Shown here piece after piece: positions 7,229 through 53,023 of a DNA stretch of 64,000 nucleotides. The stretch is from an uncultured archaeon (GTDB taxonomy: Archaea; Aenigmatarchaeota; Aenigmatarchaeia; CG10238-14; SCSR01). Position 1 is the stretch's first letter, and each line of letters starts with the position of its first letter. The notes below the pieces were generated by a model, which saw only the letters and a list, made by a program, of their open reading frames with translations, was not told where the DNA came from and ran no database searches. The stretch spans positions 14,925-78,924 of the forward strand of contig CAZIJH010000004.1 in the NCBI GenBank assembly GCA_964539655.1. The letters are read 5' to 3'. Made by a program: the position numbers and the translations under genes.

Positions 7229-7894
7229 TCATTTGCCCGACAATGTGTAGTTCTTTTTCGGAATCATTTCTAATCTTCTATTTAAAACGTATCTGGCATT
7301 CCTTTTTGCTTTCTTGCTAGATGTGCTCGGCTGATTCATCGTCTCAGTTAAAAATCTCAAATCAATTAGATACGGCATCTTATTCGTGTCAGACTTTAAT
7401 GGCATACATAAAGTCAAAATTAGTAGCCTGCTTGAAATTGTCGGCATCGCAAAAATTTCAAAATCAGCCGCGCATTTTCCAAATTCCCTTTCCGTGTTAA
7501 TCTTTCCGTGAATGTAGACGTCATCGGCTGTTCCGAGATAGATAGCGGGTTTTGCCTCCATCATTTTGATGTTATTGTTGTCGTATATTCTGTGCTGCGG
7601 AGATTGGTTCCTGAGATAATCTATCCTCCAAGAATAGTCTGCGTCCATTTCTCTGTTGGAGAAGCAGCTGTAAACGTCTTCCGGATTTGCCGGGAATCTT
7701 ACAGACATCAATTTTTTCGAAGATTCGTCCGCATTTCTATACATCTTCATTATTCTGTGCGCAGGAGGAACCTCCCGAAAAAGTGATTCTACCATGTTTG
7801 CGGGCAATTTTATTGCATCTATGATCTTTGCGACTTTCATGCGATTCAAAATAAATCCGAATTGAAAAAATTTAAGCAACAATGTTATGGTCAT
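7229..7894 (-). CDS. hypothetical protein co-oriented with and abutting the Ku/ligase genes
   Basis: 221 aa, end-to-end with the ligase gene. No LigD polymerase or phosphoesterase motif could be recognised by eye. Confidence 0.45.
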   Translation of the reverse strand: MTITLLLKFFQFGFILNRMKVAKIIDAIKLPANMVESLFREVPPAHRIMKMYRNADESSKKLMSVRFPANPEDVYSCFSNREMDADYSWRIDYLRNQSPQHRIYDNNNIKMMEAKPAIYLGTADDVYIHGKINTEREFGKCAADFEIFAMPTISSRLLILTLCMPLKSDTNKMPYLIDLRFLTETMNQPSTSSKKAKRNARYVLNRRLEMIPKKNYTLSGK

Positions 7895-8892
7895 TTGAAT
7901 GAAACTTCTTCCAAATTTTCATCGAGCGTGCATTCTTCTGGCAGCTTGTCCGTCCTTAATCTTTTGAAGGAAGGTGCCCTGAATTTCAGATTCCTGTTCA
8001 GGTGCAAAAATTCAACTTCGGCGACCAGTTCGGGCCTAACCCATTTCGTCTTGCTCAGGATGGAAGGTATTTCTTGGATTGGCTGGTCACCGAACGGATT
8101 TTTATCCGTCTCCAAATTTCTGACCTTGTCGGATATCGCGGAGTATCCCTGCTCGTCCAGTCCTGTGCCCACCCGGCCGAGATAGTGAAACTTCCTTTTG
8201 AAAAAAATTGCGCACAGCAGGGCCCCGAAGTATTTCGCCCGCCATCCTTCTCCTCTTGTGTACCCGACTATCACGCAATCGAGCGTCCGCAGAGTCTTGA
8301 ATTTTTTCCAGTCATTGGAACGTCGTCCTGTCTGGTAGCTCGAATCGATGCGCTTCGCCATCACTCCCTCGAAATTTTTCTCCTTTGCCAGTTTGAACAA
8401 TTTTTTCCCTTCGCCGAAAACGTGGAAAGATATCAGGAATATTTTGTTCGCTACTACTGTTTCCTGGAGGATTTTTTTCCTTTCCAAAATCGGAAGATCG
8501 GTCAAGTCCTTTCCGTCCTTGTGCAGAATGTCGAAGACGACATAAGTCGCTGGATAGATTTTGGACATCAGCTCTATCCTTGTCCTGTCTCCCGTAAGCT
8601 CCCTGCTCGCAAGCAATGAGAAATCGGGCTTCCCGTTTTTGAAAACTACTATCTCTCCGTCGAGGATGACGCGCTTTGCGTTTATGTCCTTCCATATGTT
8701 TTTGAATTCCGGATACCTTCCCTCGAAATAGTTGAACCTCCTGTTCAGCAGTTTGAGCGACTTGTTCTCCGTATCGATGTAGCTGATCGTCCTCGTGCCG
8801 TCGAACTTCAGCTCGAAAATGAATTTCTCGTCGTCGAACGGCTTTGAAATAAATGCCAGCATCGGTTTTATTTCTTGCCCCCACAGCGACAT
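7891..8892 (-). CDS. ATP-dependent DNA ligase (LigD-like ligase domain)
   Basis: Motif I ELKFDGTR (KxDGxR adenylation lysine), an OB-domain region, and a length typical of stand-alone LigD ligase domains. The track ORF starts at a TTG (8904); the first ATG gives MSLWGQ at 8892. Confidence 0.8.
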   Translation of the reverse strand: MSLWGQEIKPMLAFISKPFDDEKFIFELKFDGTRTISYIDTENKSLKLLNRRFNYFEGRYPEFKNIWKDINAKRVILDGEIVVFKNGKPDFSLLASRELTGDRTRIELMSKIYPATYVVFDILHKDGKDLTDLPILERKKILQETVVANKIFLISFHVFGEGKKLFKLAKEKNFEGVMAKRIDSSYQTGRRSNDWKKFKTLRTLDCVIVGYTRGEGWRAKYFGALLCAIFFKRKFHYLGRVGTGLDEQGYSAISDKVRNLETDKNPFGDQPIQEIPSILSKTKWVRPELVAEVEFLHLNRNLKFRAPSFKRLRTDKLPEECTLDENLEEVSFK

Positions 8893-8907
8893 TATAATCA
8901 ACAAAAA

Positions 8908-9699
8908 TTATTTTTTCCTTTTCTTTTTCGCGGATTCTACGCTGATCTTCAATGCCTCCATCAGATTCTTAGTCTCTGCAACCTTCTCTTCCTTGTACGC
9001 GAAAATCCTGCCTTCTGATTTTGCCTTTATCAAATCCTTCAACGCTTTTGTGTATGCGTCATTGAATCTTGACGCATCGAAATTTTCAACCACCAAATTT
9101 TCAACCAGCATCTTCGCGAGATCGAGTTCCTCTTTTTTTGTCTGGACCAATTCCTGAAGTTCCGGCAGCTCGTTGATGTTTCTGAGCTCGTCCGCGTAAT
9201 GCAGGATGTGCATGACAAGCCCGTTCTTGTACGGCCTCAGGGAAATGATGTATTCCTTGTCCCTCATCACGACTTTTCCGATCGCCGCCTTGTTTGTCAG
9301 CCTCATGACTTCGATGAAAAGCGAGTAGGCTTTTTCGCCCTGTTTGTCAGGCACGACATAATAAGATTTCTCGAAAAATATTGGATCTATCTGAGATACG
9401 TCAACGAATTCCTGCACGTCGATCATTTTTGTGGTCTTCGGCTTGACCTTCTGTATGTCATCCCTGCTTACGGCGACTATTTTATCTCTCGTTATCCTGT
9501 ATCCTTTCTCTATTTCGTTCCATTGCACCTCGTGCCCTTCAGGGCACCATCTCTTGTAGCTCAGCTGCTCATGATGCTCCTGACATAGCATGCTGAAATT
9601 TATTCTATTGTCGTCCGCCGCGGCGTACACCCTGACGGGTATTAGAACCATTCCGAATGATATGGAGCCTGTGAAGATCGCCCTCGCCACGTACGACAT
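8908..9699 (-). CDS. ku: Ku protein (non-homologous end joining)
   Basis: AIFTGSISFGMVLIPVRVY is the hallmark Ku N-terminus, with an acidic/basic C-terminal tail. The likely start MSYVARAI is at 9699; the track ORF extends to 9783. Confidence 0.8.
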   Translation of the reverse strand: MSYVARAIFTGSISFGMVLIPVRVYAAADDNRINFSMLCQEHHEQLSYKRWCPEGHEVQWNEIEKGYRITRDKIVAVSRDDIQKVKPKTTKMIDVQEFVDVSQIDPIFFEKSYYVVPDKQGEKAYSLFIEVMRLTNKAAIGKVVMRDKEYIISLRPYKNGLVMHILHYADELRNINELPELQELVQTKKEELDLAKMLVENLVVENFDASRFNDAYTKALKDLIKAKSEGRIFAYKEEKVAETKNLMEALKISVESAKKKRKK

Positions 9700-9802
9700 C
9701 GGCACGATCTTTTTTCCCTGAGCCACCGCTATTAGAGTGATGGAATTCGGATATAAAATTTTTCTTAAAATAAGATGGGACAACGCGTCATTTGATTAAA
9801 TT

Positions 9803-10447
9803 TTATTCTCCGGACCATTCCTGCTGCCTGTCGAATAAGATGTCGTGGTATTCCCAGTACTTGCCTTGCTCGCCGGCGCACTTGCTAGCTTCCGCTGCCT
9901 GGTACGACAGCTTGTGGAAGTTCAGCGGGAAATCCCTGTAATAGATTTTCACTTTGCCTTCGTAGTCCTGCAAAATCTGTTTCAACGTCAATTCTGCTTT
10001 CGCGCAGAACGGGCACTGGTAGTCAGAAAATTCAACGATTGTGACGTTTGCATTCGCTGACCCGAGCGGCGGATTCGTTCCTGTCCCTATCTGTGGATTT
10101 GCTGACGGATTCGAGAGTTCCGAATCGATTATTGATTTGAAATTTTCCAAAGGAACCGCGCCGACAAGATTTTTTCCGTTGATGAAAAATGTCGGGGTGC
10201 CTTCCACTCCATATGATTTCCCGTCACTGATATCGCTCTGTATTTCGGAATTGTATTTGTTTGTTGTCAGGCAAGTGCTGAATTGGTCTACGTCAAGTCC
10301 GAGTTCGCTTGCATACTGCCCGAATTTTGGAGAGATGACTGCGGGCTTCTGCTGCTGAAGTAAAAAGTATCCGCTGACGATTATCGTTAACAATATTAGT
10401 AATCCGACGTAGTGCTGGATTTTCAATTTCATTTTATCAATACTCAT
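9803..10447 (-). CDS. DsbA-like thiol:disulfide oxidoreductase, membrane-anchored, apparently circularly permuted
   Basis: N-terminal TM anchor. Then come the C-terminal-type DsbA elements (ELGLDVDQF...GVEGTPTFFINGK), a Pro/Gly-rich linker, and only then the N-terminal-type element VTIVEFSDYQCPFCAKAE with its CxxC, followed by the start of the helical domain. Confidence 0.75.
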   Translation of the reverse strand: MSIDKMKLKIQHYVGLLILLTIIVSGYFLLQQQKPAVISPKFGQYASELGLDVDQFSTCLTTNKYNSEIQSDISDGKSYGVEGTPTFFINGKNLVGAVPLENFKSIIDSELSNPSANPQIGTGTNPPLGSANANVTIVEFSDYQCPFCAKAELTLKQILQDYEGKVKIYYRDFPLNFHKLSYQAAEASKCAGEQGKYWEYHDILFDRQQEWSGE

Positions 10448-10473: not shown

Positions 10474-10722
10474 TCAAAAGCATTGCTGGTATCTGTCAGG
10501 ATGGTGTGACATGTGCTCCTGCCATTCCGCGTCCGTGTATCCCGCGGGAGTCTGGCATATGTCGTTCGAGTTCTCGCTCGATATGGCTTTCTGGTAATTC
10601 AGGCCGTACTTGCCGAATACAAAAGTGTATGCGACTATGGAAAAAACAACGATGGTAATTATCAGAATTGCAGTCGTCATGGATACGGTCTTTTCTGATT
10701 TTTTCTTTTTCATATTACACAA
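10474..10722 (-). CDS. small membrane/secreted protein
   Basis: 82 aa with one TM helix and a His-rich C-terminus (HMSHHPDRYQQC). Confidence 0.35.
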   Translation of the reverse strand: MCNMKKKKSEKTVSMTTAILIITIVVFSIVAYTFVFGKYGLNYQKAISSENSNDICQTPAGYTDAEWQEHMSHHPDRYQQCF

Positions 10723-11110
10723 CTCCCAACGGAACTATATTCGCGTACAGCGATATGAAGCTTGCAACCATCACGAAGATGTTGAACGCCAGCCAGAAAT
10801 TTTGGCTACCCGTGAACTTCATTTTGCACGTTTTCTTTTTCCACATGTAAAATCCGATCGCCACGCTAGCGGAGGCAAGTCCCATTATCGAGAAGAACAG
10901 GCTGTAATCCTGCAAAAAAAGCAGCGGCATCCCAGTGACCACTATCCCGAAAGTTGCCAGAAAAACAATCACCACTTCGCATGCGACATGACAGATATTA
11001 TGCAAGCCGAGTATTCCCAGTCCTCCGCTAACTCCGCCAAAGATTCCGATGCTTTTCGTTTCCTTGATTTCATTTTTGCCTCTCGGCTTTTTTATTTTTC
11101 CATGCAGCAT
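10715..11110 (-). CDS. integral membrane protein with a Cys pair (CHVAC)
   Basis: 131 aa with 3-4 predicted TM helices, in a thiol-redox/metal neighbourhood. Confidence 0.4.
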   Translation of the reverse strand: MLHGKIKKPRGKNEIKETKSIGIFGGVSGGLGILGLHNICHVACEVVIVFLATFGIVVTGMPLLFLQDYSLFFSIMGLASASVAIGFYMWKKKTCKMKFTGSQNFWLAFNIFVMVASFISLYANIVPLGVV

Positions 11111-11210
11111 ACTACCACGTCTTCCAGAGTTTTTTTCAATTTCGCAGCCCAGCTTTTATTTTTCTTTTTCTCGATTTTTTTCTTCAGATTTTCAAGCATC
11201 GACATTCAAA

Positions 11211-11609
11211 TCATTCCTCTTTAGAGTTGGGCTTGTTCAAACACCAGAACAGGCTGTACAGGTCGAACGCGCTCTTCTCAAGTTTCATCGCTTCGTTGTT
11301 GTCCTTTCCCATGTACTTCGTCGAGCTCTCCATCAGGCGCATTGTCGCAGAGAGCAAGTGCTTGCTTATGCACCAGAGCTCCCCGTTCGGAGAGCCGATC
11401 AGTTTTTTTAAAAGTTCTACGCGAAGCTTGCGCACTTCCTGCAGAACGTCGAGGTACATGTCGTTCCCCGTCTTCATAGAAGTGAACGCGAGATGCTCCT
11501 CGACTGCGATGAGATTCATAATCGCTATGCTCAGGTCTTCCTTGTAAGTAAGGTCGACCTTTGCCTCGTCCGATATTTTTTTGTTGTCTTCCTCGCTCAA
11601 GCCGTCCAC
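11211..11609 (-). CDS. hypothetical protein
   Basis: 132 aa, acidic, no motif. Confidence 0.4.
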   Translation of the reverse strand: MDGLSEEDNKKISDEAKVDLTYKEDLSIAIMNLIAVEEHLAFTSMKTGNDMYLDVLQEVRKLRVELLKKLIGSPNGELWCISKHLLSATMRLMESSTKYMGKDNNEAMKLEKSAFDLYSLFWCLNKPNSKEE

Positions 11610-12148
11610 CCCATTGCATAAAACATCCCGGCGCTTATCGAAAGCAGAGCTATGGCGAGTACGATCGCCTGGAACGGAACGTAATTTTTGTTCCCGTTAT
11701 TTTTTCTCAACATATCATGCAACGCGAACGCCGCAACTGTGACAACGCTTCCGATAGTCGCCCCGACAAACAATTTGTCAATACCGAAAAGCATGAACTT
11801 AGGGACGCTACTGCCAAGGAACCCTGCGAAATAAAATGTCGCGACAACCGATATGTACGACAAAAGGATTATTATCGGGAGCTGGAATTTGATGTAGCCG
11901 CTTCCTTTGGATTTTTTGTTCAGCCAGTTGTTGATCCAGTAGCCCGTCGATATTATCAGCCCGCCTACGAAAGTGCTGACAATAAGATCGTCGATTCCGT
12001 ACCATCTAGCCGCCAGGACGGCCGCTCCGGTCGCCGCAGTGCAAAGAGGGCAGTGCGCCATGACGAAATTGGAAAATAGAGGTATCGATAACAGAGAAGA
12101 AATTAAGAAAATTCCAAACATTGCAATTTTGTTTTTTGTTTTTTCCAT
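11597..12148 (-). CDS. integral membrane protein with a CPLC motif
   Basis: Likely start MEKTKNK at 12148; the track ORF carries a spurious N-terminal extension. Multi-TM, with a HCPLCTAATGAA motif. Confidence 0.5.
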   Translation of the reverse strand: MEKTKNKIAMFGIFLISSLLSIPLFSNFVMAHCPLCTAATGAAVLAARWYGIDDLIVSTFVGGLIISTGYWINNWLNKKSKGSGYIKFQLPIIILLSYISVVATFYFAGFLGSSVPKFMLFGIDKLFVGATIGSVVTVAAFALHDMLRKNNGNKNYVPFQAIVLAIALLSISAGMFYAMGWTA

Positions 12149-12162
12149 TTCTAGTTCACCTT

Positions 12163-12336
12163 TTAATGGCAGCAGTTCGAGTGGTCGTGATGATCGCCCG
12201 ACTTTCCCTGGAATTCTTTCACGCATTCCTCGCTGCAGAATTTCTTGCCCTCTGCTTCGATCGCTTTCATGTCCTTCGTGATCTTCATCTTGCACACAGG
12301 GCAAGTTGCATTTCCGAAACTTATTCCGAATACCAT
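12163..12336 (-). CDS. small TRASH/YHS-like metal-binding protein (57 aa)
   Basis: Unlisted ORF MVFGISFGNATCPVCKMKITKDMKAIEAEGKKFCSEECVKEFQGKSGDHHDHSNCCH. It has CPVC...FCSEEC spacing like TRASH/YHS domains and a His/Cys-rich tail. An RBS-like GGTGA lies upstream. Confidence 0.55.
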   Translation of the reverse strand: MVFGISFGNATCPVCKMKITKDMKAIEAEGKKFCSEECVKEFQGKSGDHHDHSNCCH

Positions 12337-12348
12337 TCTTGTTTCACC

Positions 12349-12783
12349 TTAGTGCATGCTGTCCATGCTCGGAGTAGCGATTGTTCTTGTTATTTTCGCG
12401 TTTCCTTCCGAGTCAAGTATGTCGAGGAACACCTTTTCCTCACCGTACATGTGAAGGCAGGGCTGTACCGCCATCCTGTGTGAGTAATGGAAATTGAGCA
12501 CGCCGAATTCCTTGGTCCTGATTCCGGCATCGCATTGGGTAACGTCGTTACCTATGCAATTTGCGTCGTATGTCGTGAATCCCTCAACGGTTCCTGGAAC
12601 GAGATTCTTTCCGTCCGTGATTTTTCCCATGAAAATGTTCAACGGATTGTCACCAGGATTTCCCTGATAGGAGCTCATTCCAGTCGGAACGTATATCTTC
12701 GTCAGCATGTAGCCAGTTACCGCTACCAGCACGACTATCACTACCAAGCTTATCGCAGTGCTGTTCTTGAGTTCGATTTTCAT
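12349..12783 (-). CDS. secreted/membrane-anchored hypothetical protein
   Basis: 144 aa with an N-terminal TM/signal segment and several Cys and His residues. Confidence 0.45.
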   Translation of the reverse strand: MKIELKNSTAISLVVIVVLVAVTGYMLTKIYVPTGMSSYQGNPGDNPLNIFMGKITDGKNLVPGTVEGFTTYDANCIGNDVTQCDAGIRTKEFGVLNFHYSHRMAVQPCLHMYGEEKVFLDILDSEGNAKITRTIATPSMDSMH

Positions 12784-12849: not shown

Positions 12850-13338
12850 TTATTTTGTCACAATTACGTTTGACATTCCTCTTCTTCTTCTTTCAACAAG
12901 TCCTTTGGTTTCTAATTTATCAAGCAAACGGGTGACTTTCACTTTATTCATTCCACTTCTTTCTACCAACTCATTCTGAAAAATAAGTCCGTCACTGTTT
13001 CCGATAAGTTCGTAGATTTTTTTCTCGTCTCCTTCAAGATTTTTCACAACTTTTTTCCATCTCTGCTGGCTTTCGACAACAGTTCTTTCAGACTGCCTTC
13101 TGCTCAAAATCAGCAAGGCTCCAAATCCGCCGAGACCGAAATCAACTATGTATCCGAGCACAGCGGGAATCGGTATGTTCGCCCTGAAGGGGCATATGTT
13201 GTCGGGCAGATCGCAGTCCTTGTGCAGAAGGGCCTGCAAAGAAAGTATCTCGTTCACCATGAAGGAATGTATAAGGAAAATCGTAACGGCTATCCCAATG
13301 AGCATCCATCCTATAGTTTTCGAGTTAATTGATTCCAT
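12850..13338 (-). CDS. membrane-anchored winged-helix transcriptional regulator
   Basis: Two N-terminal TM helices plus a C-terminal wHTH (IYELIGNSDGLIFQNELVERSGMNKVKVTRLLDKLETKGLVERRRRG). Confidence 0.55.
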   Translation of the reverse strand: MESINSKTIGWMLIGIAVTIFLIHSFMVNEILSLQALLHKDCDLPDNICPFRANIPIPAVLGYIVDFGLGGFGALLILSRRQSERTVVESQQRWKKVVKNLEGDEKKIYELIGNSDGLIFQNELVERSGMNKVKVTRLLDKLETKGLVERRRRGMSNVIVTK

Positions 13339-13944: not shown

Positions 13945-16023
13945 TTAATTTCTCAACTTTGGCTTGTATCTTCTCATCAGCAAAGAATTGCCCACAACCG
14001 ACACGGAACTGAAAGCCATGGCAGCTCCCGCGATTATCGGGCTCAGCAGGAATCCGAAGAACGGATACAAAATTCCGGCCGCAATCGGTATGCCCGCAGT
14101 GTTGTACGCGAATGCGAAGAAAAGATTCTGTTTTATTTTCCTGATGGTGTACGCGCTCAAATCGATCGCAGTCACGACATCCCTCAAATCATTTTTGATA
14201 AGTACTATTTCTCCGGTCTCCATCGCGATGTCCGTCCCGCTTCCGATTGCGATTCCGACGTCGGCTTGTGCCAACATCGGTGCGTCGTTTATTCCGTCGC
14301 CTACGGTCGCAACCTTGTGTCCCTGCTCCTGAATTTTCTTTACGGCTTCGGATTTTTCTCCGGGAAGAACGTTGGCCATCACGTCGCTCATTTCCAATCC
14401 TATCTGCTTCGCTATTGCTGCGGCCGTCCTTTCGTTGTCTCCCGTGATCATCATGACTCTTTTTTTCATTTTTTTCAGTTCCTGGATCGCCTCGCTTGAA
14501 AATTGTTTCAAGGTGTCCGCTACAGCGATTGATCCGATGAGCTTCTTGTCGTACGCGACGAGTATCGGAGTCTTCCCCTCGTTCTCAAGTTTTTGCATAC
14601 TGTTCTCTATCTCCGAAGTTTCGATTCCGATCTCTTTCATGATGGCCCTGTTTCCCACCAGTATCTGCCTGTTGTTGTAGACCGCCTCGATCCCTTTTCC
14701 GGCATGAGTCTTGAATGAATTCGCGTCGGGGATTTTTTTGTTTGTCTCGCTAACTTTCTTGACGATCGCCTCTCCGATGGGATGCTCGCTTCCCTTTTCG
14801 ACGATTGCTGCATAAAGAAGAACGTCTTTCTCCTCGTGCCTTCCCATCACAATCACGTCGGTGACTTCGGGCTCGCCTTTCGTCAGGGTTCCCGTCTTGT
14901 CGAAGACTACCGTGTCAATCTGATTCGCAGTTTCCAAAGCCTCGCCGCTCTTTATCAAAATTCCGTTGTTGGCGCCAAGCTCAGTTCCGACAAGTATTGC
15001 GGTCGGCGTGGCCACTCCGAGAGCGCACGGGCATGCGATTATCAACACCGCGATGAAAATCGTGAGCGCGAAAATAAAATTACCCGATAGGAAATACCAA
15101 ACGAGCGCGGAAATTATTGCAATCGCGACGACTGTCGGTACAAAATACGATGAAACTTTGTCGGCGAGATTCTGTATCGGGGCTTTCGACGTCTGGGCTT
15201 CGTGGACAATTTTGATTATGTTCGCGAGCACAGTGTTCTCTCCGACCTTAGTCGCGCGGAATTTCAAAAGTCCGGATTTGTTTATCGTTGATCCTATCAC
15301 CTCGTCGCCTTTCTTCTTCTCGACAGGCATGCTTTCCCCGGTTATCATGCTCTCGTCTACGGCCGAGCTTCCTTCAATTATGATTCCGTCGACAGCAATC
15401 TTCTCCCCGGCTTTCACGATTACCGTGTCGTCGACTTTCACTTCCTCGATCGGAATGACAATTTCTTTTCCGTCGCGTATCACGGTGGCTGTCTTCGCCT
15501 GCAGACCCATCAGCTTTTTTATCGATTCTGATGCTTTCCCTTTCGCGATCTCCTCCAAAAATTTTCCCGTGAGAATAAGCGTGATGATGATCACCGAGGC
15601 GTCAAAGTAAACTTCGCCCATTGGAAAAAATGACGGAAAAAACGTGATAACTGTACTGTAAAGCCATGCTGCGGTAGTTCCTATTGCAATCAAAGTGTCC
15701 ATATTCGCAGTCATCGCGCGAAGGGCGTCGTACATTCCCTTGTAAAATCTCCATCCGGCTACGAATTGTATCGGAGTTGCGAGAAGGAACAGAACGTAAT
15801 TTTCGTATGGTATGTCAACCGCGAAAGATATTGCAATAACAGGAATCGATATGAGAATTCCAACTATCACGAGAGTTTTCAATTTCTTGAATTCGTCCTC
15901 CGGCTTCTCGTAAGTTTTCAGGCACTGTTCGGAGCAGAAATAAAGCGTCTTGCCGTCTACGACTTTTTTGTAAACTGCTTTGTTCTCGTCGACATGCATT
16001 CCGCAGACAGGGTCTATTGCCAT
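13945..16023 (-). CDS. copA: copper-translocating P-type ATPase (P1B type)
   Basis: N-terminal TRASH-like CGMHV metal-binding segment, CPC in TM6 (IIACPCALGVATP), DKTGTLT, GDGINDAP, and 692 aa. Confidence 0.9.
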   Translation of the reverse strand: MAIDPVCGMHVDENKAVYKKVVDGKTLYFCSEQCLKTYEKPEDEFKKLKTLVIVGILISIPVIAISFAVDIPYENYVLFLLATPIQFVAGWRFYKGMYDALRAMTANMDTLIAIGTTAAWLYSTVITFFPSFFPMGEVYFDASVIIITLILTGKFLEEIAKGKASESIKKLMGLQAKTATVIRDGKEIVIPIEEVKVDDTVIVKAGEKIAVDGIIIEGSSAVDESMITGESMPVEKKKGDEVIGSTINKSGLLKFRATKVGENTVLANIIKIVHEAQTSKAPIQNLADKVSSYFVPTVVAIAIISALVWYFLSGNFIFALTIFIAVLIIACPCALGVATPTAILVGTELGANNGILIKSGEALETANQIDTVVFDKTGTLTKGEPEVTDVIVMGRHEEKDVLLYAAIVEKGSEHPIGEAIVKKVSETNKKIPDANSFKTHAGKGIEAVYNNRQILVGNRAIMKEIGIETSEIENSMQKLENEGKTPILVAYDKKLIGSIAVADTLKQFSSEAIQELKKMKKRVMMITGDNERTAAAIAKQIGLEMSDVMANVLPGEKSEAVKKIQEQGHKVATVGDGINDAPMLAQADVGIAIGSGTDIAMETGEIVLIKNDLRDVVTAIDLSAYTIRKIKQNLFFAFAYNTAGIPIAAGILYPFFGFLLSPIIAGAAMAFSSVSVVGNSLLMRRYKPKLRN

Positions 16024-20061: not shown

Positions 20062-21009
20062 ATGAGAATTATTTTGAAAAAAGGTAAGCAAAAAGAACTG
20101 ATTGATTTAACCAAATCAAAATTATCTTTATCATGGTCAGAATTGGGAAGGCTCCTTGGAATTAAACCCAATTATTTGAGTGGTGATTTGCGATTTGAAA
20201 ATGTCACAATCAGCGATCAATTATATAAAAATTTGTCAAGAATGAGCGATGTTAATTTTGATAATTTCATTGAAAAAAAAGTTCCTAACAATTGGGGGCG
20301 AATAAAAGGAGGGAAGTTATCTACTCATAGACAGCGTCCTCGAAAGTTACTCATTAAACAACATTCTAGTAATCTTGCAGAAGCTATTGGTATAATTTTA
20401 GGTGATGGTAGTTTGTATAACAATAAAAAACATGGAATCAACCAATTAGTTGTAACTGGCCATATCAAAAATGATCAAATATATTTGTCTAAATTTGTGA
20501 AGCCGCTTTTTGAAAATTTGTTTAATTTAAAATTTAGTATTAAAAAAGATAACAAAAAACATGTAATAAGAATTTACAGCCAAAAGAAAGATGTTTTATA
20601 TACTTTAGAAAAACTTGGCATACCGATTGGAAATAAAATAAAGAATGATGTTGGAATACCGAATTGGATATTTTCGTCAAAAGATTTCGTTAAATCATGC
20701 ATACGTGGTATTGTCGACACTGACGGTTCTGTATTCCCAATAACTGGAAGAAACTATACATATGTAGAAATTACATCCGCTTGCAAAAATTTAAGAAAAT
20801 CTATAGACCAAAGCATGAAAATAATTGGATTAAAAACATCCAAATGGACCAAAAATGGAACTCCAAAAATTTATATAGCAAACAAACGAGATATTTCTCG
20901 CTATTACAATGAAGTGGGATTTAATAACCCATATCATAAAAATAGATTTAAGCTCCTATCGTCTAGTCCGGTCAAACAAAGCCGAAAGGACGCCGGGCTT
21001 TCGATCTAA
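20062..21009 (+). CDS. LAGLIDADG homing endonuclease, free-standing, with an N-terminal HTH-like domain
   Basis: Two LAGLIDADG motifs (AIGIILGDGSLY, IRGIVDTDGSVF) spaced ~110 aa apart. The ORF has no stop before 21009, so its last ~19 codons overlap the 5' part of the downstream tRNA. Confidence 0.7.
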   Translation: MRIILKKGKQKELIDLTKSKLSLSWSELGRLLGIKPNYLSGDLRFENVTISDQLYKNLSRMSDVNFDNFIEKKVPNNWGRIKGGKLSTHRQRPRKLLIKQHSSNLAEAIGIILGDGSLYNNKKHGINQLVVTGHIKNDQIYLSKFVKPLFENLFNLKFSIKKDNKKHVIRIYSQKKDVLYTLEKLGIPIGNKIKNDVGIPNWIFSSKDFVKSCIRGIVDTDGSVFPITGRNYTYVEITSACKNLRKSIDQSMKIIGLKTSKWTKNGTPKIYIANKRDISRYYNEVGFNNPYHKNRFKLLSSSPVKQSRKDAGLSI

Positions 21010-33838: not shown

Positions 33839-36800
33839 GTGGAGACAGCTAAAATATGCCTGGCTCTTCTTTTTATTTTCGTGATTTTGCCGAAACCTGG
33901 CCTGGGTGCGAATCCTGTTCCTTCGCCGATGGATAGTCTGTTCGGAAAAAATCTTTACAAGGCGATCATCCATGTCAACGCGGCCGACAAGGGCGAGATC
34001 AGCGCGTACTATCACAAGAATTTCGCCGGGTACGGCGACAACGGTTTCGACGCAGTCTTTTTCACTCTAGACGACAACCTGATGAATATAACAAGCGAGG
34101 AGCCGTACAACGGCGGATTCGAATCATTCACTTCATGGTCGTCAAAGGAGTCCACCGTTCCCGGCGAATATGTCGGAGAGAAAAGTTCGGCAAAATATCT
34201 GAGAGGCGGCAATTCTTTGCACGCGTCCGCGAAAGTTTCCGGCGAGAATTTCGGATACGCAGGCGCGTACCAGGACATGCTCTGGCAGGTTTCGGCCGTC
34301 GCGGCGGACTTGAATTTCAACTTCTCGATCTACCCTGTCGCGATGGATAACAAGACCGAATTTCCTGATTCGCTGTTTGCCGTAGAGTTCGGTTTCAATT
34401 ACTACAATTCGAGGAACTACACGCCGAAGATGGTGCTGCTTTTCCAGGAAAATTCTTCCGAGACATTTTCGGACGGGTCGCCATTCTCAAACGACTTCGA
34501 CACGGTCTACCACGTGATGAATCCGCAGGACCAATTGAAATTCAACTTGTGGAACACCTTCAGCCTGAACCTCACTGATTTGATTGTAAATTATTACGGA
34601 AGCGAAAAGGCTCTCAACCTGAAGATCAACAACATCGGGATATACGCGTACAGCCGCAACGGCGCCGATTCCGAATTTTATGCCGACGTCGTGAAGCTTT
34701 CCGGCAACAACGCAGTCCAAGAGACTTTTTCAACGCTGACGGGCTCGATAAAAAATTACGACAGCCAGGAGCTGAGGATGGTTCCGGGAGAGAGACTGGA
34801 AATGCAGAACGTCATGCTGTATCTCAACAAACAAGATTATTTCCAGAAGGCGGGATACGGAGTCGACAACACAAGGAAAACAATCAAAATGGCGCATGAC
34901 GACGGAGGCTATCTTTTTGTTTCAAAGCCTGACAGCAGCGCAGAATACAGGACAAACATGTTCGAAAACCTTTGGCCGGTCGACGGGATGGCCGTGTACT
35001 TTTCAAGAAACATGGGACGCGAAGGCTTCGCAACCGACATCTGGGATTATTATCTTACGAACGGAATTTTTGCGCAGGGGATTGCCGAAGCCCATCCGAT
35101 GTACGTCAGCGACGCGGAATCGTACGCGAAATGGCTGCCCGCGCAGTACGTGTATGCAGATGACAATTCTCCGGAGAGCATAGTCGAGGCTCTGGCGCAG
35201 GGAAGGAGCTTCGTGGAGCGCAACAGGGCGAAGGTTCCAATGATGATTTTTTTCTCCGCAGAAAACAGCCAAGTTCCTGCGGGAAAATTCCCCGTCTACG
35301 TCGACTCGAGCAGGGACGAAGCCGTCCTCGATATAGAGCTGACAAATATTCCGCCCGAGGCGAAAATTCTTAGGCTGATAAGAAACGGTACTTTTTTGTC
35401 AGACGAGCCCATATCCGGAACTTCTTTCAGCAAAACATACACGCCGTCGCTGCCGGACAAATCTAATTATTTCAGGATCGAGATTTTGAATTCGTCGAGC
35501 GTCATGGCGTTCAGCAATCCGATAGTGTACATAAAGAAAAACATTGATCCGGATATCTGGATGGCTCTCGCCCCCTCTCTCCAGCAGGGATCCGCGAGTT
35601 CGTCGATAGAATCCATAAGTTATTCCGGAAAAAATCTCAGCTTCGTTGTGAAATCCAAGCGGGACGTTTCAGTCACCACGAAAATATTTTCCGAAAAGCC
35701 TCCGTCAGAGGTGATGAATGCGGAGAGCTGGGACTACGATCCTGCCGCGAAAATAGTTAGAGTCGAGACTGCTGGAAAAAATTCCGACAAAACAATTGTT
35801 TCTTTTGACAGTAAGCACAATCGTGCGCCGACATGGAAGGACAATTCGACTTCTCCGCTGAATCCTACGTTCTATTTTGCAAATGCGGAATACAACTTCC
35901 GTATATCGTGGGAAGACGATGACGGAATCGGCGAAGTCGTTTTTGAACTGAACGGGGCTAATTTTACCGTTGAAGGGAACGGAGATTATTCCTTTGCCGC
36001 GAAAGATTTGGCTGCTGGGAATTATGAGTACAGATGGTATGCAAGAGACGCAATGGGGATGTGGAATTACACTCCGATCCAGAATTACGAGATTAAAAAA
36101 TCTCCGATAAATTTGGTCACGCTGTTCCTGAACGGCTTGGCAAATTCCGATGCGACAACGTACGAATCGGAAATAAACGCGACGGCAATTTCACAGTCTG
36201 GCAAACCTTTCCTGTGGCGCGACGGGAAAAATGTGGGAAATCCCGAAATTGAAAATCTTCCTGCCGGAAAATATTTGTACAAGGCAAATGCAAGTGGAAA
36301 TGAAAATTACAGTTCTAACCACGATGGGGTTTCTTTCTACTTTACGATTGACAAAGATTTCACGGACACCGATCCGCCGAAACTGAACTCTCATTCGATC
36401 GAAGCCTTTATGGAAGGCGGAAAAGTTTTTGTGAATGTCACTGCTTTTTGGTCGGACAATTTGGAGATAAGCGAAAATTTGATCGAGGAAAATTTTACGG
36501 GAATTGTCCGAAATACTACGATGGAAAACCAATTTGTCCAACCAGTAGACCAAGGCGAATTTCTGTTCAGACTGCTGGCGAACGACACGTCCAACAATTT
36601 TAATGCGACCGATTTCACCGCAGCGGTAGTCGACATCCAGGCCGGAAAAGTTTTCGTCAATTTCAGCGGGTTCGGAGGGGACATAACTTACGAATTCGTT
36701 ACGAAAAATCAGACGGAGCCTGAAAATAAAAATACGACTTCCTATTTCCAAATTTTGTCCGACGGAAAAATCCTAAATGCGACGGTGATTATCGAAAGTT

Positions 36801-37585
36801 ATTCGCAGGAGGATATTCCCCAGAACAGCGAAACGCTGCGGTTGAACAAATTTATAGGAGTGCTGATTTTGAACGAGGTTTCGGACGGATGGTCCATAGT
36901 GAAAATCTATTACGATGATTCGGAAGTTTCGTTGTCCGGAATTGACGAGAGATCATTGAGGATATGGGAATTGTATCCTGAAAAAAAATCCTGGTACAAG
37001 TTCGATTCTCCCGACGGCAATGTTGACACGAATAACAATATCGTCTGGGCGAACGTCTCGAATTCTGGAATTTACGGCGTGTTTGGTTCGGTGCATCAGG
37101 AAGAACCTGTCCAAGGTTCTCAGCCGAGTTCGTCTGGCGGAAGCGGTGGAGGAGTCGGCGGGGGCGGAAGTGGAGGAAATGTCGCGGGAAAAATTGAAAA
37201 GGAATCGCCACCAGATGAAGAAACAACTGACGAAAATATAAAGAATGACAAAAAAGACGAAAATGAAAATATTCGGGAATCAAAATCAGAAGAAGCCACT
37301 GACCACGACAACAAACCTTCTGAAAAATCGGAAAAGAATGTCCAATCAATAGCTCCGACGGGATTTTTTTTCTTTGTTCAGCCAAACTTGGGGATAATTT
37401 TCAGTGGAGCAGCACTGGCAACGGCTGCATTCATAGTTTACGGTAAAAATTTCCTGCCGAAATCAAATGGTGAAATTTTAGATCTTGCAAAGGAAAGATG
37501 GCGAAAAATTTGCAAAAAGTTGAAGTCGTTTGTCAGCAAAGGAAGGGCTCAGAAAACAATAGATTTATATATCACTAAGGAGTAG
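33839..37585 (+). CDS. large secreted surface (S-layer-like) glycoprotein candidate with a C-terminal TM anchor
   Basis: GTG start with a signal peptide, many N-x-S/T sequons, and a Gly/Ser-rich linker (SSSGGSGGGVGGGGSGGN). An acidic/Lys-rich spacer, a single TM helix preceded by PTGFFFF, and a ~50-aa basic cytoplasmic tail complete the protein. Confidence 0.65.
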   Translation: METAKICLALLFIFVILPKPGLGANPVPSPMDSLFGKNLYKAIIHVNAADKGEISAYYHKNFAGYGDNGFDAVFFTLDDNLMNITSEEPYNGGFESFTSWSSKESTVPGEYVGEKSSAKYLRGGNSLHASAKVSGENFGYAGAYQDMLWQVSAVAADLNFNFSIYPVAMDNKTEFPDSLFAVEFGFNYYNSRNYTPKMVLLFQENSSETFSDGSPFSNDFDTVYHVMNPQDQLKFNLWNTFSLNLTDLIVNYYGSEKALNLKINNIGIYAYSRNGADSEFYADVVKLSGNNAVQETFSTLTGSIKNYDSQELRMVPGERLEMQNVMLYLNKQDYFQKAGYGVDNTRKTIKMAHDDGGYLFVSKPDSSAEYRTNMFENLWPVDGMAVYFSRNMGREGFATDIWDYYLTNGIFAQGIAEAHPMYVSDAESYAKWLPAQYVYADDNSPESIVEALAQGRSFVERNRAKVPMMIFFSAENSQVPAGKFPVYVDSSRDEAVLDIELTNIPPEAKILRLIRNGTFLSDEPISGTSFSKTYTPSLPDKSNYFRIEILNSSSVMAFSNPIVYIKKNIDPDIWMALAPSLQQGSASSSIESISYSGKNLSFVVKSKRDVSVTTKIFSEKPPSEVMNAESWDYDPAAKIVRVETAGKNSDKTIVSFDSKHNRAPTWKDNSTSPLNPTFYFANAEYNFRISWEDDDGIGEVVFELNGANFTVEGNGDYSFAAKDLAAGNYEYRWYARDAMGMWNYTPIQNYEIKKSPINLVTLFLNGLANSDATTYESEINATAISQSGKPFLWRDGKNVGNPEIENLPAGKYLYKANASGNENYSSNHDGVSFYFTIDKDFTDTDPPKLNSHSIEAFMEGGKVFVNVTAFWSDNLEISENLIEENFTGIVRNTTMENQFVQPVDQGEFLFRLLANDTSNNFNATDFTAAVVDIQAGKVFVNFSGFGGDITYEFVTKNQTEPENKNTTSYFQILSDGKILNATVIIESYSQEDIPQNSETLRLNKFIGVLILNEVSDGWSIVKIYYDDSEVSLSGIDERSLRIWELYPEKKSWYKFDSPDGNVDTNNNIVWANVSNSGIYGVFGSVHQEEPVQGSQPSSSGGSGGGVGGGGSGGNVAGKIEKESPPDEETTDENIKNDKKDENENIRESKSEEATDHDNKPSEKSEKNVQSIAPTGFFFFVQPNLGIIFSGAALATAAFIVYGKNFLPKSNGEILDLAKERWRKICKKLKSFVSKGRAQKTIDLYITKE

Positions 37586-44934: not shown

Positions 44935-46134
44935 TTACATTCCCAGGAATCTGTGCGCAAAAGAATTCTCGTGCTTCTTTTCCTTTTCCTCGTTCACTTT
45001 TACTATTTTCGCTATGCGCCTGATCTCTTCAGAAATTTTCTTCGCGGATTCCTCGTTGTTTCCCACACCGACACAATTTCCAACTCCGACAACAACAATA
45101 TTGTTTCCCTTGGTGTTCGCTATGTTTTTCTCGACCATCTTTATCACATTTGGCACGGCGTCAAGCACTTCCGTCCTCATAGGCATTATCGCTTCCTCCT
45201 GGCCCATCTTTATTGCGACCGCGTCAAGGGGAATTCCTTTCTCTGCCGAAAGATTGTCAATGTAGGCGCTGTCTATCCCGATTCCTCCAATCGCAACTCC
45301 TATTCCTTCTGCTATGGATCCGGTCTTCTCGCCCTCAAGTTTCCCAGCTGCATCGACCGTTATAATTTTAGAAATTTTCTGTTTCTTAGAAATGTTCTCA
45401 ATTACCTTTCCGATTCTTCCAAGCCTTCCACCCGGGCCTTTTGCGCGGACAATGTAAACAGTTTTTCCCTTGATTTTTTTCTTCGCGACAATCGTGTCGT
45501 CTTCGACTTCTTTCACTGGGCTCTTGCCGATCAAATACGAAGCGACTAGCGGTCCTACGGAATCACCGACCGGCCAGCCGTTTGCGAACGCCTCGGTTCC
45601 TTTGAGAAGGGCCTTCGAGAATTTTTCAATCATTGGAAGCTGCATTTGGAGCATCATTGCTATCTGCAGGTTCTTGGTTTTCTTTACAGTCTCGACGAAA
45701 TGCCTGACTATCTTCGCGATCTGGTTCAGCGTCATCGCGCCAGACAGGCTCATTACCAAATTCGCCTTTTCTTCTTTCGGCATCTTAGGCGCGACCTGGT
45801 CCGCAAAATAATTCATCTTCTTGTCGTGCATGACAACCACGTTTTCAATTTTCTTCATTATTCCGAACGGGTCCGTCGTCACTGGTCCGATCAAAAAGAA
45901 TTCCAGAAAATTCGAGACCGCTTCCCTTATTTCCCTGGTAGGATTCTTGCTGATTTTTCTCAGGACGATGTTTTTTCCGCTGTGCCTGAAATTCTCGAGC
46001 ATGATCGCGGACCTTTCCAATACCAAGACCATCTGCGCGACCATCAGTCTTGGATAGAAAAATATGAAAAGCGAGAAAGATACGATTACCCAAATCATGT
46101 TAATGACGAAATCGTCTGAAATGCCGAATACCAA
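44935..46134 (-). CDS. DUF1512-family archaeal membrane protein
   Basis: N-terminal TM, with overall length and pattern recalled for DUF1512. Confidence 0.5.
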   Translation of the reverse strand: MVFGISDDFVINMIWVIVSFSLFIFFYPRLMVAQMVLVLERSAIMLENFRHSGKNIVLRKISKNPTREIREAVSNFLEFFLIGPVTTDPFGIMKKIENVVVMHDKKMNYFADQVAPKMPKEEKANLVMSLSGAMTLNQIAKIVRHFVETVKKTKNLQIAMMLQMQLPMIEKFSKALLKGTEAFANGWPVGDSVGPLVASYLIGKSPVKEVEDDTIVAKKKIKGKTVYIVRAKGPGGRLGRIGKVIENISKKQKISKIITVDAAGKLEGEKTGSIAEGIGVAIGGIGIDSAYIDNLSAEKGIPLDAVAIKMGQEEAIMPMRTEVLDAVPNVIKMVEKNIANTKGNNIVVVGVGNCVGVGNNEESAKKISEEIRRIAKIVKVNEEKEKKHENSFAHRFLGM

Positions 46135-52927: not shown

Positions 52928-53023
52928 CGCCCAGGATGGGATTTGAACCCACAAGAGCTTGCGCTCGCAGCGTTTCAGTAAATTTTTCCAGCGCTGTGCC
53001 ATACCGGGTTAGGCGACCTGGGC
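52928..53023 (-). tRNA. tRNA-Ser (anticodon GGA) with a ~12-nt anticodon-loop intron
   Basis: Reverse complement GCCCAGG...CAGCG-CTGGAA-[AAATTTACTGAA]-A-CGCTG, a long variable arm CGAGCGCAAGCTCTT, T-arm GTGGG-TTCAAAT-CCCAT, and acceptor CCTGGGC+G. Confidence 0.6.

Follow-up and report, generated by a model that had tools for sequence, protein, structure and literature searches.

DsbA is a textbook disulfide catalyst and a classic subject of circular permutation in the laboratory. The 64-kb stretch of archaeal DNA that was analysed here (64,000 nucleotides in total, hereafter the window) contains an open reading frame whose product looks like a DsbA with its two halves exchanged, and this raises the question whether we are dealing with a circular permutation that arose in nature or with a damaged or wrongly assembled gene. 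A first-pass annotation had proposed the former. We found no published account of a natural permuted DsbA. Our analysis indicates, with a probability that we estimate at about 90%, that the gene is a real, conserved and naturally circularly permuted member of the DsbA/Thioredoxin_4 family. The protein does not represent a novel type of enzyme.

Chain order and predicted structure

The circularly permuted DsbA-family ORF occupies positions 9803..10447 on the minus strand and comprises 214 aa plus stop codon, with an ATG start, although most relatives begin at the position of Met6 (MKIK...) and the true start may, therefore, be 10432 and not 10447. All parts of the protein described here are consequently encoded on the minus strand. 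The N-terminal anchor (aa 1-31; 10355..10447) consists of a Lys-rich end followed by a single hydrophobic helix at aa ~13-30, which spans aa 4-31 in the AF2 model. The part that corresponds to the native DsbA C-terminus (aa 40-113; 10109..10330) contains the last three helices of the helical insert (40-48, 53-61 with Cys59, and 66-78), followed by two strands (86-89 and 92-95) together with the invariant Thr84-Pro85 of the GTPTF motif (the predicted cis-Pro loop opposite the active site), and the last helix (100-112). It is followed by the junction of the old termini (aa 114-134; 10046..10108), made up of a spacer (~113-122) and a conserved segment ahead of strand beta1, and by the part that corresponds to the native N-terminus (aa 135-214; 9806..10045). 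The latter holds strand 135-141, the CPFC motif (Cys145-Pro-Phe-Cys148) at the N-terminus of helix 146-161, i.e., where the first thioredoxin helix begins, strand 166-172 and two insert helices (181-192 with Cys190, and 197-211), after which the stop codon is reached. Both native parts were delimited by Pfam, the alignment with 4pwp, the family alignment and the model. Overall, the chain is predicted to run from the anchor through insert helices 3-5 into the C-terminal strand-strand-helix unit with its Thr-Pro loop, and from there over the spacer into the CPFC segment and insert helices 1-2. In this permuted order the thioredoxin domain becomes one continuous stretch.

The exchange of the two halves is evident from profile and pairwise comparisons. 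Thioredoxin_4 (PF13462; 118.9 bits vs. a cut-off of 23.2) and DSBA (PF01323; 86.9 vs. 25.6) each yielded two partial matches, with positions 3-94 of 165 of Thioredoxin_4 matched by aa 123-212 (E 3e-34) and positions 123-190 of 191 of DSBA matched by aa 40-107 (E 2e-24). Against the Corynebacterium DsbA 4pwp, residues 127-213 of the query correspond to chain residues 71-159 and residues 42-113 to 168-240; both stretches are significant on their own and they occur in opposite sequence in the two proteins, so that the chain order is reversed. When the sequence is un-permuted by placing aa 37-113 after aa 114-214, it aligns unbroken to 4pwp 72-239 (E 6.6e-22). Since collinearity fails until this is done, we file the protein as a topological variant of DsbA and not as a standard member. 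The Pfam matches and the 4pwp alignment thus bear out the order given in the first-pass annotation, i.e., anchor, late helical insert, C-terminal-type segment, linker, N-terminal-type segment and early helical domain.

The AF2 model (pLDDT 86.9, pTM 0.78) shows the order of secondary-structure elements expected for a permuted DsbA, with four strands, flanking helices and five insert helices, i.e., a thioredoxin fold with an all-helical insert. All leading matches in the fold searches are DsbA-family proteins, and the engineered permutant 1UN2 ranks first in two independent searches, among them as the best PDB match of Foldseek with 189 aligned columns. A DsbA-like model and fold-search results of this kind agree with the permutation. 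The break opens the loop from helix 2 to helix 3 of the insert, at a site that maps to residues ~100-105 of E. coli DsbA, so the suggestion that the new termini lie inside the helical domain holds as well.

Conservation of the permuted order

The first-pass annotation had raised two doubts, namely that the gene could be a singleton among relatives of conventional order and that a tandem duplicate could have been misassembled. The identical protein occurs on three contigs. Two of them are Logan assemblies that stem from different sequencing runs, and NCBI is recorded as a further source, with a contig of 92 kb. Among the 120 best homologues, at least 32 have the permuted order. It is present in approximately 30 clusters of likely DPANN archaea (52-64% identity), in a second clade of at least 111 permuted clusters from Microgenomates/Daviesbacteria bacteria, and in one gene of the Saccharibacteria (L004). 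The taxonomic placement was taken from the closest named homologues of MetRS. Homologues from JGI, ENA, Logan and NCBI assemblies with 44-64% identity all have the same order and the same N-terminal anchor, and the C-terminal ends are conserved among the permuted homologues (...EWSAG, ...NQxxIF). The gene is, hence, no singleton, and the permutation is conserved. In the window itself, tblastn revealed no further DsbA-like segment or remnant of a second copy; a weak match at 45887-46018 (E 0.013) lies inside a DUF1512 gene and was treated as chance.

The species genomes of GTDB were scanned with two peptide patterns, both of which are common to ordinary DsbA. The matches listed were mostly proteins from Myxococcota and Chloroflexota with a canonical or a tandem arrangement; the Saccharibacteria gene was the only new permutant among them, and the window's own clade was not recovered among these matches. 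The protein pairs available to us were either identical or at most 64% identical.

An assembly artefact, in which DsbA genes in tandem were collapsed or wrongly joined so that a chimeric ORF combines the last part of one copy with the first part of the following one, could be envisaged because real tandem DsbA-DsbA genes exist and such repeats may mislead assemblers, but it is effectively refuted by the recovery of the identical protein from different runs, by the order, anchor and C-terminal ends kept in homologues from four sources, and by the flanks of the gene, which contain no DsbA-like DNA and in which the next gene begins 20-77 bases past the stop codon.

The alignment of 22 permuted sequences also bears on the functional state of the protein. 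C145, C148, T84, P85 and F140-S141-D142 are among its invariant residues, and besides the active-site cysteines and the Thr-Pro loop some 30 positions do not vary at all. Both active-site cysteines are invariant, in 22 out of 22 permuted and in 116 out of 116 core sequences, and a hydrophobic N-terminal segment was found in every permuted member of the family. The order and all catalytic residues are conserved in two large clades. A tandem two-domain DsbA that had lost both of its ends would leave just this arrangement (second half, linker, first half), and the gene could accordingly be seen as the decaying, non-functional remnant of such a protein. Such a remnant would, however, not persist for long, whereas here the order is kept down to 44% identity, the catalytic and many other residues are invariant, every member retains its membrane anchor, synteny is stable in two lineages, and the AF2 model represents a complete and confident DsbA fold. 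We thus consider decay very improbable and retain the interpretation of an intact permuted protein.

Junction of the old termini and predicted closure of the fold

The old N- and C-termini are covalently joined, with the chain passing from helix 100-112 over residues 113-134 into strand 135-141. A flexible linker of 24 aa had been proposed for this junction. It does join the old termini, but the proposed length was too large: residues ~121-134 (GTGTNPPLGSANAN) correspond to the conserved stretch found ahead of strand beta1 in ordinary members of the family. In this segment G123 and G129 are invariant and P126 is nearly so, the Pfam match begins at 123, and the model is confident (pLDDT block of 94). 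This leaves a true spacer of about 8-10 residues (113-122).

An alternative is that the chain does not fold alone but acts as a domain-swapped dimer, in which the C-terminal half of one chain is completed by the N-terminal half of its partner. This seems improbable, as the monomer model closes as one DsbA-like body with pLDDT values of 92/78/94 for the blocks in the region 101-130, the natural junction exceeds the 5-residue linker of the engineered permutant, and the latter crystallised with the wild-type global fold according to the title of entry 1UN2. A putative structural disulfide between Cys59 and Cys190 would hold the separated halves of the helical domain to each other. Equivalents of both cysteines are present in 105 of the 116 relatives and both are absent in five, and only four full-length sequences lack one member of the pair. 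Four clade-1 members are without the equivalent of Cys59, and the putative disulfide thus appears to be dispensable.

Predicted function and gene neighborhood

The permuted DsbA most likely acts as a thiol:disulfide oxidoreductase outside the cytoplasm. Apart from the hydrophobic helix behind the Lys-rich N-terminus, neither the sequence nor the model contains a second hydrophobic segment; the N-terminus reads as a signal anchor, and the protein would have an N-in/C-out topology with the catalytic domain outside the cell. There, Cys145 and Cys148 would exchange disulfides with secreted or membrane proteins. Neither DsbB nor VKOR was detected among the approximately 20 ORFs of the 64-kb window that were scanned with Pfam.

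A connection with copper stress is possible in view of the neighboring genes. Directly upstream of the permuted gene lie six small co-directional genes (10474..12783, minus strand) coding for proteins of 144, 57, 183, 129, 131, and 79 aa. The 57 aa protein is TRASH/YHS-like and metal-binding, those of 183 and 131 aa are membrane proteins with HCPLC and CHVAC motifs, respectively, and the 79 aa protein combines a TM segment with a Cys/His tail. The six genes and the permuted DsbA make up an array of seven genes, which is conserved in locus L092. Further upstream, and likewise co-directional, a membrane-anchored MarR/DUF7343 winged-helix regulator is encoded (12850..13338, minus strand), orthologues of which adjoin the permuted DsbA in L085, L090, and L091. 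It is followed by a gene (13945..16023, minus strand) for a P1B-type ATPase that translocates copper and begins with a YHS domain. This ATPase passes the cut-off of the copper-ATPase family TIGR01511 (631 bits vs. 397); its orthologues directly precede the permuted DsbA in L091 and L095 and are situated close to it in L085. Four out of seven loci contain the regulator, and the TRASH array is present in L092 as well as in the window. The archaeal protein, judged by these neighbors, may serve disulfide maintenance or the handling of cysteine and copper, coupled to copper export.

Alternatively, the protein could be the general oxidative-folding DsbA of the cell, with its copper-efflux neighbors being coincidental. 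Some observations are in line with this: no copper genes were found near the gene in the archaeal locus L083, the closest canonical relatives are generic membrane-anchored archaeal DsbA-family proteins, and the bacterial clade has a different and stable neighborhood (Pth, the permuted gene, DUF3105, and ZIP), which lacks copper genes, so that the copper link is lineage-specific at best. Against it stands the proximity, within a few kb, of a copper ATPase, a MarR/DUF7343 regulator or a TRASH array in six out of seven archaeal loci, in two of which the gene starts only 18-26 bases past an ATPase gene on the same strand. Moreover, canonical DsbA paralogues are encoded close by in L083 and L090, and the permuted copy is, therefore, not the sole DsbA there. 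We regard a general folding role as plausible, but on balance somewhat doubtful.

Evolutionary origin

In a neighbor-joining tree of 160 columns, for which the canonical sequences were chosen by their similarity to one query, the archaeal, Microgenomates/Daviesbacteria and Saccharibacteria groups do not form one clade, and the same loop has, therefore, probably been broken more than once. Monophyly is unsupported in this tree, yet polyphyly is not thereby proven. An intermediate of the kind expected for a permutation seems to survive in the tandem DsbA-DsbA protein P0391, which has a TM anchor and two DsbA domains with a mutual identity of 74.6%; the middle of this protein is collinear with both permuted proteins (48-51% identity; E 6e-56 and 5e-64). 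Arrays of several DsbA units occur frequently: the best 150 matches in a profile search with the permuted alignment were all multi-DsbA arrays of 427-1196 aa. The tandem proteins found reach at most ~51% identity to either permuted clade. The permutation may, thus, have arisen after a membrane-anchored DsbA was duplicated in tandem: copy 1 would have lost its first half without a shift of the reading frame, copy 2 would have been truncated in its second half, and this course of events would probably have been taken more than once. The fact that canonical, tandem and permuted forms are all extant in related uncultured lineages fits such a route. The canonical 307-aa DsbA that adjoins the permuted gene in L083 and L090 was considered as its recent parent. 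It is only 38-49% identical, less than the up to 63% of unlinked canonical relatives, and was for that reason rejected.

A more far-reaching scenario is that two or more natural permutations of DsbA took place, one of them in DPANN archaea and one or two in the CPR bacteria (Microgenomates, Saccharibacteria), always at the loop tolerated in the laboratory, and that the change was adaptive and not neutral. With the tether on the helical cap and no longer on the thioredoxin core, the active site would be reoriented near the membrane. This would serve copper export in the archaeal clade, where the enzyme would mend wrong disulfides induced by copper or handle cysteine/Cu(I) sites in the small membrane proteins with Cys motifs from the same operon. 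Taken as a whole, we consider this scenario speculative and rather unlikely.

Comparison with known systems and implications

The nearest known counterpart in topology is the engineered cpDsbA_Q100T99 (1UN2), which stems from random circular permutation (Hennecke, Sebbel & Glockshuber 1999, J Mol Biol 286:1197; as cited in PMC3281007 and PMC13552848). In both cases the old termini are joined and the new termini are placed in the loop of the helical domain that holds E. coli residues 99/100. However, cpDsbA_Q100T99 is artificial, soluble and periplasmic, has a synthetic linker of 5 residues, and is only 15-17% identical to the natural protein. The natural proteins, in contrast, are of the Thioredoxin_4/BdbD-like branch, have their helical domain attached to a membrane anchor at the N-terminus, retain the native pre-beta1 segment in their junction, and possess an extra conserved Cys pair. 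The engineered variant is reportedly catalytically active.

Canonical proteins used for comparison were BdbD of B. subtilis (3eu3), DsbA/TsdA of C. diphtheriae (4pwp, 7unn), and P0032, P0055, and P0059 from DPANN archaea. Canonical membrane-anchored DsbA/BdbD proteins share the motifs FSDYQCPFC, YRDFPL, KYWEYHD, and GTPTFFING with the permuted protein, are up to 63% identical to it over the un-permuted core, and follow the same logic of an N-terminal anchor; close archaeal relatives also contain the same extra Cys pair. They differ in that their anchor is attached at strand beta1, whereas in the permuted protein it is attached at the helical insert and the halves are swapped. The tandem proteins P0391, P0014, and P0022 and the multi-domain arrays are collinear with the permuted protein in their middle, but have two complete domains. 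ScsC-type proteins (4gxz, 4xvw, 7rgv, 6nen), which are among both the sequence and the fold matches, likewise have a DsbA-like Thioredoxin_4 domain, with the Thr-cisPro loop that is predicted for the permuted protein, and their genetic association with copper tolerance may parallel the linkage to a copper ATPase in most archaeal loci, although not in L083 or the bacterial clade. Their order is, however, canonical and their identity to the permuted protein amounts to only 20-23%. ScsC proteins oligomerise via an N-terminal helix and partner with ScsB/ScsD, whereas the N-terminus of the permuted protein is a membrane anchor and its neighbors are a CopA-type ATPase, MarR/DUF7343, TRASH/YHS and small membrane proteins.

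The existence of a widespread natural family with the topology of cpDsbA_Q100T99 implies that a site found permissive by experiment has also been used by evolution, probably repeatedly. For annotation it means that the topology of several hundred database proteins labeled as "thioredoxin domain-containing" or "DsbA family" is non-standard; it appears as two partial domain matches and is under-scored by sequential structure aligners. The tether on the helical cap and the archaeal copper-efflux cluster, finally, provide testable ideas on how cysteines in the cell envelope may be managed in archaea and bacteria with small genomes.

Reversed Order of the DsbA Halves in the Window Protein

The open reading frame at 9803–10447 on the minus strand encodes a protein of 214 aa, along which two partial Pfam matches stand in reversed order: aa 123–212 correspond to positions 3–94 of Thioredoxin_4 (E 3e-34), and aa 40–107 to positions 123–190 of the 191-position DSBA model (E 2e-24). 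The same picture emerged from a search of solved structures, where residues 127–213 aligned with residues 71–159 of 4pwp, the DsbA of Corynebacterium diphtheriae, and residues 42–113 with its residues 168–240. Once the protein was un-permuted by cutting it after residue 113 and moving residues 37–113 behind residues 114–214, it matched 4pwp in a single stretch (chain 72–239, E 6.6e-22). The swapped order of the DsbA halves, proposed in the first-pass annotation as a circular permutation, is thus confirmed far beyond chance. In every catalytic respect tested the protein is a DsbA-family enzyme, and the collinear order is the sole tested family feature that it lacks.

The order cis-Pro motif followed by CxxC was found in 32 of the 120 best homologues, which fall mainly into two clades. 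Clade 1, the archaeal group that includes the window protein (P0001–P0016, P0018, P0021, P0023, and P0121–P0126; full-length members of 210–256 aa), shows 52–64% identity to the window protein over ca. 97% of its length, a common N-terminal hydrophobic anchor and a C-terminal end of the type Q-x-E-W-S/A-x. Clade 2 (P0082, P0086, P0091, and others; 231–249 aa, 44–47% identity, ending in NQxxIF) has named members from Candidatus Daviesbacteria, Microgenomates, and Patescibacteria, annotated merely as “thioredoxin domain-containing protein” or “DSBA oxidoreductase family protein.” A search with P0091 added 111 clusters (90% clustering) with the permuted order; one match was a tandem protein and not permuted. 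A third version is a single gene (L004, 7875–8639) of an uncultured Saccharibacteria genome, ending in SEQQK. The window gene is, therefore, not a singleton, and C145, C148, T84, P85, and some 30 further positions are invariant in the alignment of both clades. The window protein itself occurs on three contigs, two of them assembled by Logan from separate runs; the collection also lists a 92-kb contig of an NCBI source. Because the order is conserved and the same protein stands on three contigs, a decaying remnant and a misassembly across duplicated copies are both excluded for practical purposes. Neither a second copy nor a leftover DsbA fragment was detected beside the gene when the whole window was searched with the protein and each half (tblastn). 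We place the probability of a genuine, conserved circular permutation at roughly 95%.

The related loci contain genes typical of archaea (those for the ribosomal proteins L37e and S8e, LSM, and PCNA), one clade-1 protein bears the name “MAG TPA [archaeon],” and the closest named relatives of the methionyl-tRNA synthetase in the window are from Candidatus Aenigmatarchaeota (67% identity, with many more at 56–60%). A DPANN archaeon in the vicinity of Aenigmatarchaeota is the most likely source of the window. The loci of clade 2 carry a bacterial-type peptidyl-tRNA hydrolase.

Predicted Structure, Break Point, and Junction

An AlphaFold2 model built with 22 permuted homologues as input is confident (mean pLDDT 86.9, pTM 0.78); in its globular part (aa 40–214) most ten-residue blocks score at least 90 and the lowest two 78. 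A long N-terminal anchor helix (4–31) is followed by helices at 40–48, 53–61, and 66–78, strands at 86–89 and 92–95, a helix at 100–112, the junction (113–134), a strand at 135–141, a helix at 146–161 with CPFC at its start, a strand at 166–172, and helices at 181–192 and 197–211. The thioredoxin domain is thereby one continuous segment (aa ~84–172), and the helical insert is split between both ends. Among 350,542 PDB chains the top Foldseek match of the model, with 189 aligned columns, was 1UN2, the engineered permutant of E. coli DsbA, whose title reads [quoted passage not shown]; natural DsbA proteins ranked below it, mostly with 80–125 aligned columns. Since both fold-search programs used are sequential aligners, this ranking indicates that chain order is shared by the window protein and the engineered permutant.

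In a profile of the un-permuted family the natural C-terminus lies opposite approximately F93–I102 of E. coli DsbA, and the helix that comes next to the anchor opposite approximately S106–K118. The E. coli sequence used here was checked at residues 99 and 100 only, which are T and Q. By this alignment, the natural break falls in the same loop in which the engineered permutant was cut, at T99/Q100, in agreement with the proposal that the new termini lie inside the helical domain.

The 24-residue flexible linker of the first-pass annotation stands only in part. Residues ~121–134 share homology with the stretch ahead of strand beta1 in conventional members of the family, the permuted ...IKTGSNPxxGSAxAPVTIVEF corresponding to canonical ...VSADDDPVLGDPNAPVTIIEF; G123 and G129 are invariant in the permuted alignment, the Pfam match begins at 123 and the model is confident across this segment. 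The true spacer is, therefore, limited to residues ~113–122. A pre-beta1 segment of this kind would be left behind if two full copies had been fused.

Cys59 and Cys190 form a second, nearly invariant cysteine pair: both are present in 105 of 116 permuted, canonical, and tandem cores and neither in five, and among full-length sequences just four lack one of the two. We infer a putative structural disulfide inherited from the canonical ancestor, which in the permuted chain would hold together the two parts of the helical domain, one N-terminal and one C-terminal. Whereas canonical relatives have a long spacer leading into strand beta1, the tether of the permuted proteins enters at the helical cap, in clade 1 via only ~9 residues (the anchor ends at ~30 and the first helix starts at 40) and in clade 2 via ~30 Pro/Ala-rich residues. 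The permutation may be neutral.

Evolutionary Origin

In P0391, a tandem protein of 428 aa, a membrane anchor is combined with two DsbA domains, each complete and sharing 74.6% identity with the other. Its middle, residues ~162–352, aligns collinearly with P0091 (51% identity, E 5e-64) and with the window protein (48%, E 6e-56), which fits a route of duplication followed by truncation: after a tandem duplication, the first half of copy 1 would have been lost without disturbing the reading frame from the anchor, and a stop would have been gained behind the first half of copy 2. Further tandem and multi-DsbA proteins are common. Among them P0127–P0276 reach up to ~1200 aa with 3–10 matches to DsbA halves, i.e., arrays of tandem DsbA domains.

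For a neighbor-joining tree, all permuted proteins were un-permuted and combined with domains of canonical and tandem proteins (116 sequences, 160 columns). In this tree, obtained by a simple method and with a canonical set picked by similarity to one query, clade 1 and clade 2 received bootstrap supports of 92 and 100%, clades 1 and 2 together 3%, and all permuted proteins together 0%. The best identity of the permuted groups to canonical proteins is 59–63%, versus 44–56% to other permuted groups, and their break points lie a few residues apart, all within one loop. These comparisons lead us to favor, with some reserve, more than one origin, i.e., two or three independent permutations.

Genomic Neighborhoods and Putative Function

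In the window, the permuted DsbA is the last gene of a co-directional minus-strand string headed by a MarR/DUF7343 regulator (12,850–13,338). Between them (within 10,474–12,783) lie, in order, genes for a 144-aa protein, a 57-aa TRASH/YHS-like protein with a His-rich tail, a 183-aa membrane protein with HCPLC, a 129-aa protein, a 131-aa membrane protein with CHVAC, and a 79-aa anchored peptide that contains Cys and His. A weak TRASH/YHS match was the only one that these six small genes gave in Pfam and NCBIfam. They precede the permuted DsbA in identical order in L092, from a second archaeal genome (4585–6955; 36–84% identity), and may represent an undescribed copper- or thiol-handling module. 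Just beyond the string, on the same strand, a copper P-type ATPase with a YHS domain (13,945–16,023) scores 631 bits against a TIGR01511 copper-ATPase cut-off of 397. Its orthologs in L091 (76% identity) and L095 (75%) end 26 and 18 bases, respectively, ahead of the permuted DsbA on the same strand. In L085 the permuted gene and a MarR–249 aa–YHS–ATPase unit are oriented divergently, and in L090 MarR and a 205-aa membrane protein lie ahead of the gene; no copper genes were found near it in L083. In several loci the MarR/DUF7343 regulator adjoins the copper ATPase. This regulator, also seen in L091 (3462–3953), L085 (6264–6770), and L090 (5736–6106), has hydrophobic segments and a conserved cysteine pair (CDLPDNICPF) in its N-terminal half, and by its sequence looks like a membrane-bound sensor-regulator.

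In L083 (8659–10,798), L090 (7713–10,996), and L085 (7718–9805) the gene behind the permuted DsbA encodes a class-V, cysteine-desulfurase-like aminotransferase, and next in line are a canonical 307-aa DsbA in L083 and L090 and a small thioredoxin-like protein in L085; in L090 a 335-aa VSR_TRX/GILT-like protein comes after the canonical DsbA. The permuted copy is, therefore, not the sole DsbA in L083 and L090.

The neighborhood of clade 2 differs from this archaeal one and is very stable (L088, 200–4220; L097, 3649–7680; L098, 3468–7696; all Daviesbacteria/Microgenomates): inositol phosphatase, Pth, permuted DsbA, DUF3105, ZIP transporter, and NUDIX. The DUF3105 gene abuts the permuted DsbA or starts within ~50 bases, and its product may be a partner or substrate.

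The genes next downstream of the permuted DsbA in the window encode Ku and an ATP-dependent DNA ligase, the two core end-joining proteins (7891–9783, minus strand), in what is apparently a small-genome DPANN archaeon; Ku begins 20–77 bases past the permuted DsbA stop, depending on the start used. Elsewhere, a 1248-aa open reading frame (33,839–37,585, plus strand) has no Pfam match at E ≤ 1e-5, and a 96-nt tRNA match (52,928–53,023, minus strand; 41.9 bits, Rfam) that ARAGORN did not call is probably an intron-containing archaeal tRNA. LAGLIDADG homing-endonuclease domains recur on the archaeal contigs, as free-standing open reading frames and as an intein within SMC (window 20,062–21,009, plus strand; L085, 1–533; L091, 8347–9030; L090, 914–5062).

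The permuted DsbA is probably an anchored, active extracytoplasmic thiol:disulfide oxidoreductase. Disulfide repair is needed under copper stress, and ScsC, a copper-linked branch of the same superfamily, is among the sequence and fold matches. A putative recruitment of the archaeal clade to a copper-export module fits both, and we give it an even chance.

Natural Counterpart of an Engineered Permutant

A full-text search that covered few of the subscription journals brought up no natural circularly permuted DsbA; the permuted DsbA proteins in the texts found were engineered ones only, for which Hennecke et al. (1999) is the usual citation. The permuted proteins themselves are already in public databases under generic names. 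The mechanism is not new; the family offers a good evolutionary case and, in nature, a clean parallel to a classic experiment in protein engineering.
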